DNA of 46,079 bases from the NCBI GenBank assembly GCA_041752595.1, contig JBGSWE010000002.1, forward strand, positions 1 to 46,079, in the 5' to 3' direction. Below, piece by piece: positions 10,110 to 13,635 of this stretch (within the stretch, counting starts at the first letter, position 1; each line of letters opens with the position of its first letter). The notes beneath the pieces are model-generated. The model ran no database searches, was not told where the DNA came from, and saw nothing but the letters and a program-made list of their open reading frames with translations. This DNA is from Candidatus Saccharimonadales bacterium (GTDB lineage Bacteria; Patescibacteriota; Saccharimonadia; Saccharimonadales; JACDBH01). Position numbers and translations under genes: made by a program.

Positions 10110-11066
10110 ATGACTCAAGAAGACGCGGCAATATTTTATGGTCTTATGACACTAGGTGGTTTTTTTCTAATTATCATATTGGCAGCTTACTTTGGAACTA
10201 AATGGTACAACAAATTTCTCAAAAAACAACAGTTAATATTTGAGCAATGGGCTCAAAGTAAAGGGTTAAATATTTCGCCAAGTGCAAGAGTCGCAAGTAT
10301 AAGCTTGTCGAGTTTCAACGAGGGTGAAGTTATAAAAGCGGTTAGTGGTGTCGTGGAAAATGCAAACAACCGTTTTGATATCTATTGGCAAAGCGAGTCA
10401 AGGGGTAGCGGTAAAAATAGGCGTGTTTATAATCGTACAATTCTTGCAATAGTTATACCCGACACTCAATTACAAATGATTATAAACAGTAAGATTAATA
10501 ATGATTCAAACAGTGGCGGCAACCTGAACGTATTTAATAAACAACAAAGGTTTAGCCTAGAAGGTGATTTTGGCACATTTTTTGATATCTATATGCCGCA
10601 AACTACTCAGAGCGAGACGCTAAGTATGCTTACGCCAGATAGTATGCTCTATATAATGAGCGAATTTGCAGACTATGATATTGAGATAAACGGCCCGCTT
10701 TTATACATCTATTCATATCGTAATATGCATACAAGTCAAATAGATATACTACTTCCAAAGCTGGATAAGCTACTAACAGAAATGCGACTTAGAACAAGTG
10801 ATACAAGGCAAGAAAAAGTCACCAATGCTCTGGTGGCACGCACGGCCACAGATTCGGCCACTCACCGCAAAAGTCTTAAAAAAGATGTAAGGTATGTTGG
10901 AATTTTATTCGTAGTACTGTATGCAGCATCGTACATTGACCACCCTATTGTAAGCTATGTAATTGTCGTGGTGTTTTTATTTTTTGTTATAAAACTATTA
11001 TACGATAGTGCGAAACAGGCCAGCTTAAAACGTAAATACAACAAAGTTATCAGTCAATATAAGTAA
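10110..11066 (+). CDS. membrane-anchored hypothetical protein
   Basis: N-terminal TM, soluble middle (FSLEGDF), two C-terminal TMs. Confidence 0.75.
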   Translation: MTQEDAAIFYGLMTLGGFFLIIILAAYFGTKWYNKFLKKQQLIFEQWAQSKGLNISPSARVASISLSSFNEGEVIKAVSGVVENANNRFDIYWQSESRGSGKNRRVYNRTILAIVIPDTQLQMIINSKINNDSNSGGNLNVFNKQQRFSLEGDFGTFFDIYMPQTTQSETLSMLTPDSMLYIMSEFADYDIEINGPLLYIYSYRNMHTSQIDILLPKLDKLLTEMRLRTSDTRQEKVTNALVARTATDSATHRKSLKKDVRYVGILFVVLYAASYIDHPIVSYVIVVVFLFFVIKLLYDSAKQASLKRKYNKVISQYK

Positions 11067-11092
11067 AAAAACTGTTACTACTAAAAATAATA

Positions 11093-11101
11093 TGGTATTA
11101 T
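11093..11101 (+). promoter_or_regulatory. extended -10 promoter upstream of the structured RNA
   Basis: TG-g-TATTAT; predicted TSS ~11107 coincides with the start of the outermost helix. Confidence 0.55.
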
Positions 11102-11103
11102 AT

Positions 11104-11808
11104 GGTTCGTTTATAGGTCGAGTTAGCTCCCTTTTAAACGTCCTTTAACAGACGTAAATAATAAATTCGAGCGGTGGAAATGCGTTGTCAACAAGTGACA
11201 ACAATCGACCCCCGTTTGCTGAGTCCTACACTTCAGTATAAAACCTCGCAGCCTTCAGTGGCGCAGATTTTATTGTCTTTTGATGTGGGAGACAAGATTT
11301 GTAGTACTCAGCAAGTTCGCGAGATTGTCTACTCCAAAGAGATTCAACGTCAGCGCCTGGCGCTCGTTCAGTAGACACATAGTTTCGACTATGCCATCCC
11401 TGTATTGTCATGTTTATCGCGCTTTACATGAGAATATAAATGGATCTCGTATTTCGTGGCAGTATTTGCCCAATTACTGGTGTCGCGTTGGTTTCGTGCT
11501 TTCTGGTCCTTTCGGTACGAGCAAGATTGCATGCCCCTTTGCCTTCTGCTAACGCGACACCAGACCAATCGATCCTCCGGCTTTTATAGAAGCCATGGCC
11601 ATAGAAGCTGGCTGTTTGCTAGAAAACTATAAAAGCCGGAGGGTCAGCCAATCACAACTTAGTCTTAATCGTATTAATATGATTGAGAAATCAAAATAAC
11701 CACCCGAATTTGCCATTTAGCTTTGTAGAGCTTTTGCTCCAAAATTACTATACGTCTGTTTCATCCCCGAGATCATAAACGAGTTAGTTTGTGGAATCAG
11801 GAATGATA
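11104..11808 (+). ncRNA. candidate large structured ncRNA (~700 nt), class unrecognised
   Basis: Nested long-range helices plus many internal stems of 6-19 bp; G-U pairs favour the + strand; no convincing long ORF. Confidence 0.7.
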
Positions 11809-11862
11809 ATAATATAAAACCTTTTTCGCATTTAAGGTGGTAGACCTTATAATTGCTATGTA

Positions 11863-13635
11863 ATGAGGCATATTCTTAGAATAATTAAATTCACCAGCAG
11901 TTTGTGGCGCTATTATGCCGCGGTTTCTGTTTTTACTATTTTGCTTGCCGTAATTTCACTAGTTGCTCCTTTATTAACAGGTAGGGTTATAGACCAGCTA
12001 AGCCTAGGAACAGATGCAAGTATTAGGTTTGTTCTTTGGGTAGCGTTTATTATTTTCTTACTCGATGTTGCATCGACTCTACTTAGCAATATTGGTGGAT
12101 ACTACGGTGATCAAATGAATGTCAGACTCACTAAAACATTGAGTGAAAAGTATTATCAACATATTTTGAGTTTGCCACAGCAATTTTTTGACACAGAACT
12201 TACCGGAAAAATAATTAGCAGACTAAATAGATCAATTACTCAAATAGCAAGCTTTATGCAAATGATGAGTAATAACTTTTTGCAGTTTATATTTAGTACT
12301 ATTTTTTCATTAATTGTAGTTGCTTTTTATAGCTGGCAGGTAGCGCTTTTGCTCTTTTCACTATATCCAATATTCATTTTTATGACAGTTCGAACAAGTA
12401 ACACCTGGCAAAAGTACCAAAAGCAGAAAAATGATCACCTAGATTTAGCAAGCGGACGTTTTGCCGAAGCCATTAGCCAGGTTAAAGTTGTAAAAAGCTT
12501 CAATCAAGAACCGAGAGAACTTAAGTTCTTTAACGGGCATCTTTCAAAAATTATCGGCATCAATAAGCCTCAATCTATCTATTGGCATACAAATGATGTC
12601 AAACGTCGACTTTTACTAAATGTAATATTTTTTGGTGTTTATGCGTTCATATTTGTTCAAGCGGTTCAGGGTCTATTGACTCCTGGTGAAGCTGTTGCAT
12701 TAATCTTATACGCAATGAACATTAGAATTCCTATATTTACTATTAGTTTTTTGGTTGAGAACACCCAGCGAGCAGTTGCAGATAGCAAAGACTACTTTGA
12801 AATAATGGAAATCGAGCCCGCCATAACAGACAAGTCTAATTCAAAAGACCTACAAGTTAAAAAAGGAATAATTAGTTTTGATAAAGTTTCTTTTGCATAT
12901 GATAAAAAACCAACCCTAACTGATATTAGTTTTACAATAGAGCCAGATTCTAAGATTGCTTTAGTAGGTGAGAGCGGCGAAGGCAAAACCACGCTAACGA
13001 ATTTATTAATGCGTTTGTATGAACCCCAGAAGGGTCAAATAAGTATTGATAATCAGGATATCGCTGGTGTATCACAACGTAGTTTGCACAGTTCGATTGG
13101 TGTTGTGTTCCAGGATCCAGCGTTGTTTAGTGGAACAATTAAAGAAAATATTTCTTATGCCAACCCTAATGCGACTGATAACCAAATAAAGGCTGCAGCC
13201 CGCGCTGCCAACGCTAATGAGTTTATAGAGAAACTAGAAAAGGGATATGATACCGAAATTGGTGAAAGAGGCCTTAGATTATCTGGTGGTCAAAAGCAAC
13301 GTATCGCAATCGCCAGAGCTATATTAAAAGATGCACCTATATTAATTCTCGATGAGGCGACTAGTTCGCTCGATAGTAGGTCGGAATCTATGGTCCAAGA
13401 AGCGCTAGAGAGGTTAATGAAAAAACGTACAACAATCATTATCGCCCACAGGCTTAGCACCATACAGTCGGTTGATAAGATTATTACTCTTAGAAACGGT
13501 ACTATTGATGAGATTGGCTCGCCTAGCCAATTAGCTAAAACCAATGGCATCTATGCCCAGTTATTGGCTCTCCAAAACCGCAAACCTACTGATCGTACAC
13601 GCAAGCAACTCAAAGAATTCGAAATTTCTCGATAA
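11863..13635 (+). CDS. ABC exporter, fused TMD-NBD (MsbA/MdlB-like)
   Basis: TM domain; GESGEGKT, LSGGQKQR, ILDEATSSLD, IAHRLST. Confidence 0.93.
   Translation: MRHILRIIKFTSSLWRYYAAVSVFTILLAVISLVAPLLTGRVIDQLSLGTDASIRFVLWVAFIIFLLDVASTLLSNIGGYYGDQMNVRLTKTLSEKYYQHILSLPQQFFDTELTGKIISRLNRSITQIASFMQMMSNNFLQFIFSTIFSLIVVAFYSWQVALLLFSLYPIFIFMTVRTSNTWQKYQKQKNDHLDLASGRFAEAISQVKVVKSFNQEPRELKFFNGHLSKIIGINKPQSIYWHTNDVKRRLLLNVIFFGVYAFIFVQAVQGLLTPGEAVALILYAMNIRIPIFTISFLVENTQRAVADSKDYFEIMEIEPAITDKSNSKDLQVKKGIISFDKVSFAYDKKPTLTDISFTIEPDSKIALVGESGEGKTTLTNLLMRLYEPQKGQISIDNQDIAGVSQRSLHSSIGVVFQDPALFSGTIKENISYANPNATDNQIKAAARAANANEFIEKLEKGYDTEIGERGLRLSGGQKQRIAIARAILKDAPILILDEATSSLDSRSESMVQEALERLMKKRTTIIIAHRLSTIQSVDKIITLRNGTIDEIGSPSQLAKTNGIYAQLLALQNRKPTDRTRKQLKEFEISR

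Follow-up and report, generated by a model that had tools for sequence, protein, structure and literature searches.

The subject of the present analysis is a gap of about 800 bp between two protein genes in a stretch of DNA of 46,079 nucleotides from a Candidatus Saccharimonadales bacterium (contig JBGSWE010000002.1, positions 1 to 46,079 of the forward strand, hereafter the window). We put at roughly 60% the probability that positions ~11104-11808 of the + strand encode a stable, independently transcribed RNA of ~700 nt, which would represent an undescribed family of the Saccharimonadales (Saccharibacteria). The comparisons below show that the element has its own promoter, a conserved chassis, a covarying interior, and a strand asymmetry. 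The conserved, covarying structure is a result of computation; the function we infer. A sequence-only reading of the window had proposed at this site a new large multi-junction RNA of a Patescibacterium, in the size range of OLE, ROOL, and GOLLD, and the proposal is borne out by the lack of an Rfam match, by relatives in Saccharibacteria, by a conserved promoter position, and by covarying helices.

The genome that carries the window, labeled G000 here, measures 889 kb in 14 contigs (completeness 98.8%) and holds the element in a single copy. The gap is real: the open reading frame (ORF) of a 318-aa protein (10110-11066) ends at 11066, that of an ATP-binding cassette (ABC) exporter (11863-13635) starts at 11863, and the ORF list of the window contains no + strand ORF of more than 90 aa between them; pheT lies further upstream. 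The fraction of G and C (GC) is 0.42-0.47 within the element vs 0.30-0.39 in the flanks. The minimum free energy (MFE) of 11104-11808 on the + strand is -242.4 kcal/mol, compared to -177.0 ± 6.2 kcal/mol for 20 dinucleotide shuffles, none of which matches it. Folding thus exceeds that of the shuffles on both strands, with z values of -10.6 on the + strand and -8.6 on the - strand (MFE -233.1 kcal/mol). In the MFE fold, some 65% of the positions are paired.

This fold recovers 13 of the 14 helices drawn in the sequence-only reading, namely 11147-11156/11751-11760, 11163-11169/11705-11711, 11184-11202, 11215-11230/11300-11315, 11274-11294, 11326-11333/11370-11377, and 11348-11362 in the 5' part, followed by 11378-11393, 11394-11443, 11458-11470, 11477-11492/11548-11563 (16 bp), 11571-11589/11627-11645 (19 bp), and 11728-11739. 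The exception is the outermost helix, 11104-11114/11775-11785, with which the local hairpins P1 (11108-11140) and Pterm (11761-11806) compete; these two hairpins covary in relatives, and no pairing equivalent to the outermost helix is seen in the sequence of the relative G001. The real clamp of the ends is helix P2, with a local hairpin at either end, and the outermost helix of the earlier reading is not confirmed. The idea of paired ends itself survives, as the closing helix 11147-11156/11751-11760 and many inner helices covary.

Homologues, promoter, and conserved chassis

With f1 denoting the Saccharimonadales family of G000, the element is present in 15 of the 20 f1 genomes (G000, G001, G003, G004, G005, G007, G008, G009, G010, G011, G012, G014, G016, G017, and G019); two other families and a single contig from a metagenome also have it. 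The genomes G003 and G016 are unpublished, and without both of them the count is 13/18. The copies were found by a pattern search for the 3' end, by synteny of the 318-aa protein and of the ABC exporter, and with a covariance model of the 3' hairpin, R1, which matches 14 of the 20 f1 genomes; the fifteenth, G019, was recognized by its 5' part. The element is cut at the 3' end in G019 and at the 5' end in G009. Outside f1, copies with the full architecture occur in G048 (family f30) and G101 (family f19), while M1 (L083), the metagenome contig, is more closely related to G000 and was the only one obtained from the pattern scan of metagenomes. The related loci belong to Saccharibacteria/Saccharimonadales, and the elements are 565-1143 nt long.

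A blastn search of the element against 40 relatives returns only a 78-nt piece of the 3' end in G001, a genome of the same genus, the interior being too diverged for a search at the DNA level. At the G001 locus, the upstream gene is the same as in G000, and the gap of ~900 nt behind it has conserved ends; synteny shows that the genomic position of the element is fixed across genera. The adjoining protein is only 35-54% identical across the carrier genomes, and at such divergence neutral DNA would not remain alignable. Further scans gave little: protein synteny over contigs yielded only five loci, from species already known, a pattern match in G079 falls in a coding sequence and is due to chance, and the 13 pattern matches in viral contigs include none above 18.7 bits with R1 and no convincing copy. 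G011 has two paralogous elements in tandem, A and B (L031, - strand, about 2137-712), flanked by a DUF2207-like ORF (assigned by reading) and the ABC exporter; the 3' hairpin of copy B is a variant missed by R1.

Five features are common to the homologues: a sigma-70 promoter at a fixed distance, the hairpin P1, the long-range helix P2, a second bulged hairpin (Plast), and the 3' hairpin Pterm. In G000, the promoter is represented by the extended -10 element TGgTATTAT at 11093-11101, which had been noticed previously and is confirmed here as lying upstream of the element. It ends 14 nt before the motif GGUCGAG and goes unlisted in a simple promoter scan because its -35 box is missing. Transcription would start near 11104-11110. 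A sigma-70-like site that agrees with the consensus in at least 9 of 12 positions is found in 16 of the 17 elements with an intact 5' side, and a site of this quality ends 13-17 nt before GGUYGAG in 15 of the 16 relatives scored, the motif being unmatched in G014. The promoter of G019 is perfect (TTGACA-17-TATAAT).

By our own counts, P1, P2, and Pterm covary among the homologues collected. The MAFFT alignments A5 (full-length) and A6 (3' domain) misplace the strands of P2 and Plast, and P1 and P2 were hence counted with anchors. These counts, like those for G000 against M1 given below, come from our own anchored scripts and are not phylogeny-aware; the P2 anchors demand the purine or pyrimidine class at two columns, not complementarity. 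For P1, which is present in the MFE fold as well, an ungapped count over 15 sequences finds 82% of the cells paired and double changes in 8 of 12 columns. The top of this hairpin has the form G-(2-nt bulge)-GAG-loop-CUC-C, realized in G000 as GG-UC-GAG / CUC-CC at 11116-11130, where GAG/CUC is invariant and the bulge consists of U plus Y in 14 of the 15 sequences (UA in G012). Many of the P1 pairs are G-U.

The P2 clamp, likewise part of the MFE fold, joins the 5' strand AACAGACGUA (11147-11156) to the 3' strand UACGUCUGUU (11751-11760). Across the family it comprises 10-17 bp and closes 520-1030 nt. Over 15 sequences, 94.4% of its cells pair, and double changes occur in 7 of 12 columns, one of which, for example, alternates between A-U in 5 and G-C in 10 sequences; omission of G003 and G016 leaves the same seven columns variable. 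Immediately upstream of the P2 3' strand sits Plast (11722-11743 in the MFE fold), a bulged-hairpin module similar to P1 with the sequence GAGC-UUUU-GCUC-C, of which GAGC-UUUU-GCUC occupies 11728-11739. The strict pattern occurs in 9 of 18 elements, and other elements have, by reading, variants with compensating stems, such as GAGG/CCUC in G007.

For Pterm, alignment A7 (11 sequences) has 91.2% of its cells paired and double changes at 11 of 18 pairs, values that no shuffle out of 500 attains; with the partner strand slid, pairing amounts to 32-47%. The inner stem has invariant C-G, A-U, U.G, and A-U pairs, and the internal loop CCCGAnnU / GnnUCAGG is conserved. The R1 score at the Pterm of G000 is 65.1 bits.

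The two strands are not equivalent. On the relatives, R1 scores 50.8-72.4 bits on the + strand vs 18.7-32.1 bits on the - strand, and the MFE of the + strand is the lower one in 17 of 18 elements, by 5-55 kcal/mol and often by 20-55 kcal/mol. The sequence-only reading had stated that the wobble pairs are mostly G-U on the + strand; this does not hold for G000 taken alone (19/228 pairs on + vs 20/232 on -), but it does for the family, with 10.8% of G-U pairs on the + strand (508/4685) vs 7.4% on the - strand (328/4428). The asymmetry argues for selection on a + strand RNA and not on DNA palindromes.

It is in this light that an explanation at the level of DNA has to be judged, according to which the element is an inverted-repeat mobile remnant or a palindrome-rich spacer, with hairpins created by DNA processes rather than by selection on an RNA. 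P2 does resemble terminal inverted repeats of 10-17 bp, with nearly all pairs of the Watson-Crick type, and the interior contains many perfect inverted repeats of 13-25 bp whose sequences turn over fast. The swap of a hairpin tip in one strain variant and the tandem copies in G011 would fit as well. However, palindromes would not give the better folding of one strand that 17 of 18 elements show, the repeats do not include the conserved hairpins P1 (with many G-U pairs) and Pterm (with an invariant U.G pair), and the promoter is conserved. The single G000 copy with its fixed synteny also speaks against a mobile element or an integron cassette, and among the ORFs listed for the loci read none resembles a transposase or integrase gene. 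We consider an origin of this kind very improbable.

Interior of the element

The interior is built of helical domains whose sequence and length change rapidly while their pairing is retained. Interiors cannot be aligned across genera, and the closest comparison is that with M1, in which 192 pairs of the G000 MFE fold can be aligned. Of these, 119 are unchanged, 13 are kept with a change on one side, and 18 are kept with changes on both sides; when the partner is slid by 1-3 positions, 4-14 double changes are obtained instead of the 18 observed. Substitutions between G000 and M1 affect 27.6% of the paired vs 45.2% of the unpaired positions.

Best conserved in M1 is the core domain at 11319-11450 on the + strand, the strand of all helices described here. 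Its closing helix, 11319-11325/11444-11450, keeps 7 of 7 pairs, and the next one, 11326-11333/11370-11377, keeps 7 of 8, two of them by compensatory changes. The hairpin at 11348-11362 is kept in 6 of 6 pairs, that at 11378-11393 in 6 of 6 with one compensatory change, and the base of the hairpin at 11394-11443 (11394-11397/11440-11443) in 4 of 4, again with one compensatory change.

Support is also found for several domains around this core, all of them present in the MFE fold. The domain at 11215-11315 is closed by the helices 11215-11224/11306-11315 and 11226-11230/11300-11304, of which the former has 9 of its 10 pairs preserved in M1, one of them through compensation at 11224/11306; for the two hairpins inside it, within 11238-11294, M1 has hairpins of other sequence and gives no support. 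In the domain at 11477-11563, the closing 16-bp helix (11477-11492/11548-11563) keeps 10 of 16 pairs, with a compensatory change at 11485/11555. The perfect 19-bp hairpin at 11571-11645, the apical part of which is variable, keeps 15 of 19 pairs, three of them by compensation, and G001 and G009 share its core CCUCCGG/CCGGAGG with differing complementary extensions.

The remaining parts are more particular to G000 or its near relatives. The strands P2a and P2b (11163-11177), paired with 11700-11711, prolong the clamp in the MFE fold of G000 only and are unsupported in M1, where one helix retains 3 of 7 pairs and the other falls in a gap. Directly after P2, most elements have a near-perfect hairpin of 17-25 bp (P3), and long hairpins of unrelated sequence stand, by reading, at matching positions in relatives; at the site of P3, the G000 fold has a 7-bp hairpin (11184-11202), and the alignment with M1 and G001 shows that ~210 nt after P2 are missing from G000. 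The small hairpin GGCA-loop-UGCC (11458-11470, MFE) is preceded by UUCGYGGCA, and similar strings and hairpins can be read in M1, G009, G007, and G008. The hairpin AAUCG-loop-UGAUU (11663-11688, MFE) is absent from M1, with similar ones in G001, G009, and G017 by reading.

The sequence occurs in DNA of hot-spring and biofilm metagenomes, and contigs from four DNA runs gave strain variants of the element. Ten single-nucleotide polymorphisms (SNPs) are found, of which 6 are in unpaired positions, 2 change G-U to A-U (11490 and 11498), and 2 break a pair; variants at 11462 and 11464 are in the loop of the hairpin at 11458-11470. In a contig of run X5, positions 11586-11665, the tip of the 19-bp hairpin, are exchanged for 72 other letters with the base of the stem intact. 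A contig of run X6 fuses opposite strands at the 13-bp inverted repeat and is probably an assembly fold-back.

Coding cargo and possible roles

The G000 element contains no ORF of at least 20 aa led by a Shine-Dalgarno sequence and no peptide in common with its relatives, and because a ribosome-binding site followed by an ORF is missing, we take it to act as RNA. The family is, however, not purely non-coding. Four of the 18 elements, those of G007 and G008 (f1), G048 (f30), and G101 (f19), hold a small ORF of 44-53 aa that follows a perfect AGGAGGTGA site and is conserved across the three families with E values of 1e-10 to 1e-23; it lies at L017:1599-1754, at L039:1168-1326, and within the elements of loci L070 and L074. 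It encodes a basic, Cys-rich peptide with two clusters of the CxxC type (GC.GCC..C...GGLS..TC..C....H...CP.RP), of which the G000 genome has no copy. Neither this peptide nor the cargo proteins of families f4 and f56, described next, belong to a Pfam or NCBIfam family.

Weaker R1 matches occur in 5 of 41 genomes of family f4 and in G074 of family f56; the homology of these loci, and of one in G490, rests on R1 matches of 22-35 bits plus reading. At L075 and L076 (f4), P1-like and P2 helices can be read that enclose GC-rich ORFs after a Shine-Dalgarno sequence and ATG, with Pterm following, and at L071 (f56) a P1-like hairpin is followed by an ORF and then by Pterm. A local P2-like hairpin and Pterm stand, also by reading, after a protein gene at L072 and L073. 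In G490 (C1, about 321300-323100), a genome from a sample of the phylum, three copies of Pterm each follow a small ORF, separated by a repeated promoter-like spacer, which gives the locus the look of a cassette array. Judging from such loci, the chassis is probably older and more widespread than the large non-coding form and able to carry coding cargo.

We have therefore also considered that the chassis belongs to a structured mRNA or cassette, P1, P2, and Pterm being modules of the untranslated regions (UTRs) that pair the ends of the transcript and control the stability or translation of an inner gene. G000 would in that case have lost its ORF, and its element would be a relic or would have kept just the RNA role of a formerly dual-function molecule. 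Among the rivals, such a UTR or cassette chassis with a lost ORF has the strongest support, owing to the Cys-rich ORF behind AGGAGGTGA in G007, G008, G048, and G101, to the modules around the ORFs of L075, L076, and L071 with Pterm after each, and to the Pterm copies after the small ORFs of G490. Even in G007 and G008, however, the ORF starts only at 834 of 1143 and 656 of 945, respectively, such that most of the RNA is structured and non-coding, and 14 of the 18 elements have no ORF yet keep the promoter, the chassis, and a paired interior of 450-700 nt. The absence of the peptide from the G000 genome, together with the covariation of the G000 interior with M1, which would not be expected of a dead relic, makes this explanation unlikely for the present element.

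A further view, to which we give a low probability, combines the two kinds of locus. P1-P2-Plast-Pterm would be a modular 'end-clamp' chassis of the Patescibacteria with interchangeable cargo, and its ORF-less forms a new class of large ribonucleoprotein (RNP) or self-assembling RNA. The cargo would range from small protein genes (f4, f56, and G490) through the gene of a zinc-knuckle-like basic micro-protein to a structured RNA of 0.5-1 kb (G000). Were this true, the new class would belong to ultra-small epibiotic bacteria that, in the genomes searched, are without the ribonucleoprotein of the signal recognition particle (SRP).

For the reading as an independently transcribed, stable RNA, a number of possible functions can be outlined. 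The P2 clamp and both terminal hairpins would shield the RNA ends from exonucleases, and P2 would bring the invariant single-stranded or bulged nucleotides of P1, Plast, and Pterm together as a functional platform, most likely a protein-binding site. In that case, the action of the RNA would be in trans, as an RNP scaffold or a sequestering RNA, while the variable, near-perfect long hairpins may provide structural ballast, a scaffold, or sites for double-strand-specific processing. The recurrent MsbA-like exporter and membrane-protein neighbors give a weak hint of a role linked to the envelope.

Several points weigh against this reading. The element finds no match in 5 of the 20 f1 genomes (G002, G006, G013, G015, and G018), and the small ORFs of the four elements above, together with the end modules of f4, f56, and G490 that flank small GC-rich protein genes of several unrelated kinds, suggest that the chassis may primarily be a UTR or cassette scaffold. 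The P2 pairs are almost all Watson-Crick, with few G-U, and the covariation of P2 taken alone could stem from co-evolving DNA inverted repeats. In the comparison with M1, 42 of the 192 G000 pairs are broken, partly by misalignment, and the strain SNPs are few, weakly informative, and not significant, 8 of 10 fitting a fold in which 65% of the positions are paired. Transcription and the ends of the RNA are predicted from sequence; there is no intrinsic terminator on the + strand between the RNA and the exporter gene, because of which we can only infer the 3' end. The protein partner of the platform, finally, is hypothetical.

The element deserves attention for several reasons. The genomes of Saccharibacteria measure 0.7-1.1 Mb and have little room for non-functional DNA, yet 0.6-1.1 kb are kept here with a strong promoter. 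The build is unusual, with a conserved chassis that clamps the ends, an interior that turns over fast but stays paired, and the same chassis around small protein genes. It offers a testable case of a structured mRNA becoming a large non-coding RNA, or the reverse, and a candidate RNP in a lineage with very reduced RNA-protein machines. Large, intricate bacterial RNAs are rare, the main examples being OLE, ROOL, GOLLD, HEARO, and raiA, and each of them opened new biology.

Known RNA classes and flanking genes

The novelty claimed for the element holds, as no Rfam family matches the window or the 14 homologous loci. At the gathering threshold, the 4227 models of Rfam 15 give no match across the 46-kb window. 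With E values up to 10, only mir-3119, snR4, and Histone3 appear at 10900-12000, with 13-20 bits vs cut-offs of 34-80, and with E values up to 0.1 the homologous loci give only one unrelated tRNA. The literature searched, in open full text, describes no such RNA. We find it scarcely credible that one of the known classes, for instance OLE, ROOL, GOLLD, group II introns (ORF-less or permuted), SRP RNA, or 6S RNA, has a strongly diverged member here, even if the size and multi-domain fold of the element are like those of OLE, ROOL, and GOLLD, and even if the roles of SRP RNA and 6S RNA look unfilled in G000, where the Rfam models detect neither.

The earlier statement that no signature of RNase P, tmRNA, or a group II intron is present is correct. 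The RNase P RNA and the tmRNA of the genome are on other contigs (G000:C13:17972-18308, 253 bits, and C1:14902-15299, 70.1 bits, respectively). Group II introns are marked by a 5' GUGYG motif and a reverse-transcriptase ORF; no Rfam intron model matches, and the gap and its immediate surroundings lack a long ORF that could encode a reverse transcriptase. The identity with 6S RNA was considered and dropped; the corresponding model is unmatched in G000. As to SRP RNA, RF00169 and RF01854 have no match in G000, and RF00169 has none in the 20 f1 genomes. An Ffh M domain was likewise not found in G000 or in the 41 genomes of the order, and hence no SRP protein to bind, and the hairpin loops of the element are unconserved, unlike those of SRP helix 8.

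The lack of the M domain is an observation in itself. None of 41 genomes over 22 families of the order has a PF02978 match, compared to 14 of 14 control genomes, PF00448 gives only an 18.5-bit P-loop match, and a six-frame motif scan for SRP GTPases finds nothing. This could reflect an order without SRP, if real, or alternatively the detection limit of the search.

OLE (ornate, large, extremophilic) RNA is ~610 nt long, highly conserved, occurs in Firmicutes, and is adjacent to an oapA-type gene. The element resembles it in being large, composed of several domains, and highly paired, and in having a gene of its own beside membrane-protein genes, and is likewise likely to be an RNP scaffold. 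The two differ in phylum and in that the interior of the element is unconserved in sequence, whereas OLE is highly conserved; moreover, no OLE model matches, and the neighbors are a family-less 318-aa protein and a generic ABC exporter (OapA was not searched for). ROOL and GOLLD often lie near tRNAs and prophage. The present element shares with them the size class, an ornate multi-helix fold, a function yet to be assigned, and a narrow phyletic range; it differs in having no Rfam match, no tRNA in the 46-kb window, and no convincing copy in viral contigs. ROOL (~580 nt) and GOLLD (~800 nt) are reported to form RNA-only multimeric cages in cryo-EM (10.1101/2024.12.08.627333).

Two better-known RNAs resemble the element in particular respects. 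The RNAIII of Staphylococcus aureus, of 514 nt, encodes delta-haemolysin and is a large structured regulatory RNA with long-range helices; the ORF-bearing members of the present family would be dual-function RNAs in the same way, while the G000 copy is without an ORF. In the mRNAs of hok-type type I toxins, fold-back pairing between the 5' and 3' ends forms a long-range helix that joins the transcript ends in a compact, very stable molecule, and the f4/f56 cargo, like the toxins, is a small membrane protein. The cargoes of the present family, in contrast, are diverse, with none in G000, and the element is 2-3 times larger.

Downstream, the RNA is bounded by the exporter's own promoter, TTCGCA-17-TATAAT (11825-11853, + strand, 10 of 12 consensus positions in the promoter scan), which lies outside it. 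The -10 box ends 9 nt before the ATG at 11863, and in G000 and several relatives it is 6-15 nt from the ATG, which suggests that the exporter mRNA may be leaderless or near-leaderless. The exporter is MsbA-like and scores under every NCBIfam cut-off.

The close neighborhood raises the question of whether the element is a cis-acting leader or regulator of the exporter, acting by read-through or promoter occlusion with a structure that senses a signal. In nine f1 genomes (G000, G004, G005, G007, G008, G009, G010, G011, and G014) the exporter orthologue comes directly after it, exporter-like N-termini follow it, by reading, in G048 and G101, no + strand terminator intervenes, and the -10 box of the next gene abuts Pterm in G009, as does that of a different gene in G001. 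On the other hand, the exporter has its own promoter near the ATG, its orthologue in G001 and G019 sits on another contig with no element before it, and in G012 and G017 a small ORF that reads as Nudix-like comes next. Lengths of 565-1143 nt with freely varying interiors are also far beyond known leaders. We regard this arrangement as quite improbable, and keep to an independent RNA.

Another recurrent neighbor of the element is an ORF that reads as DUF2207-like. The 318-aa protein encoded at 10110-11066 is a membrane protein with hydrophobic segments at the N- and C-terminus and without a Pfam or NCBIfam family. It is present in only 7 of the 20 f1 genomes and immediately precedes the RNA in five of them, and its core is well conserved (IPDTQLQ.IINSKINND..SGGN...LEGDF...ADYDIE.NG).

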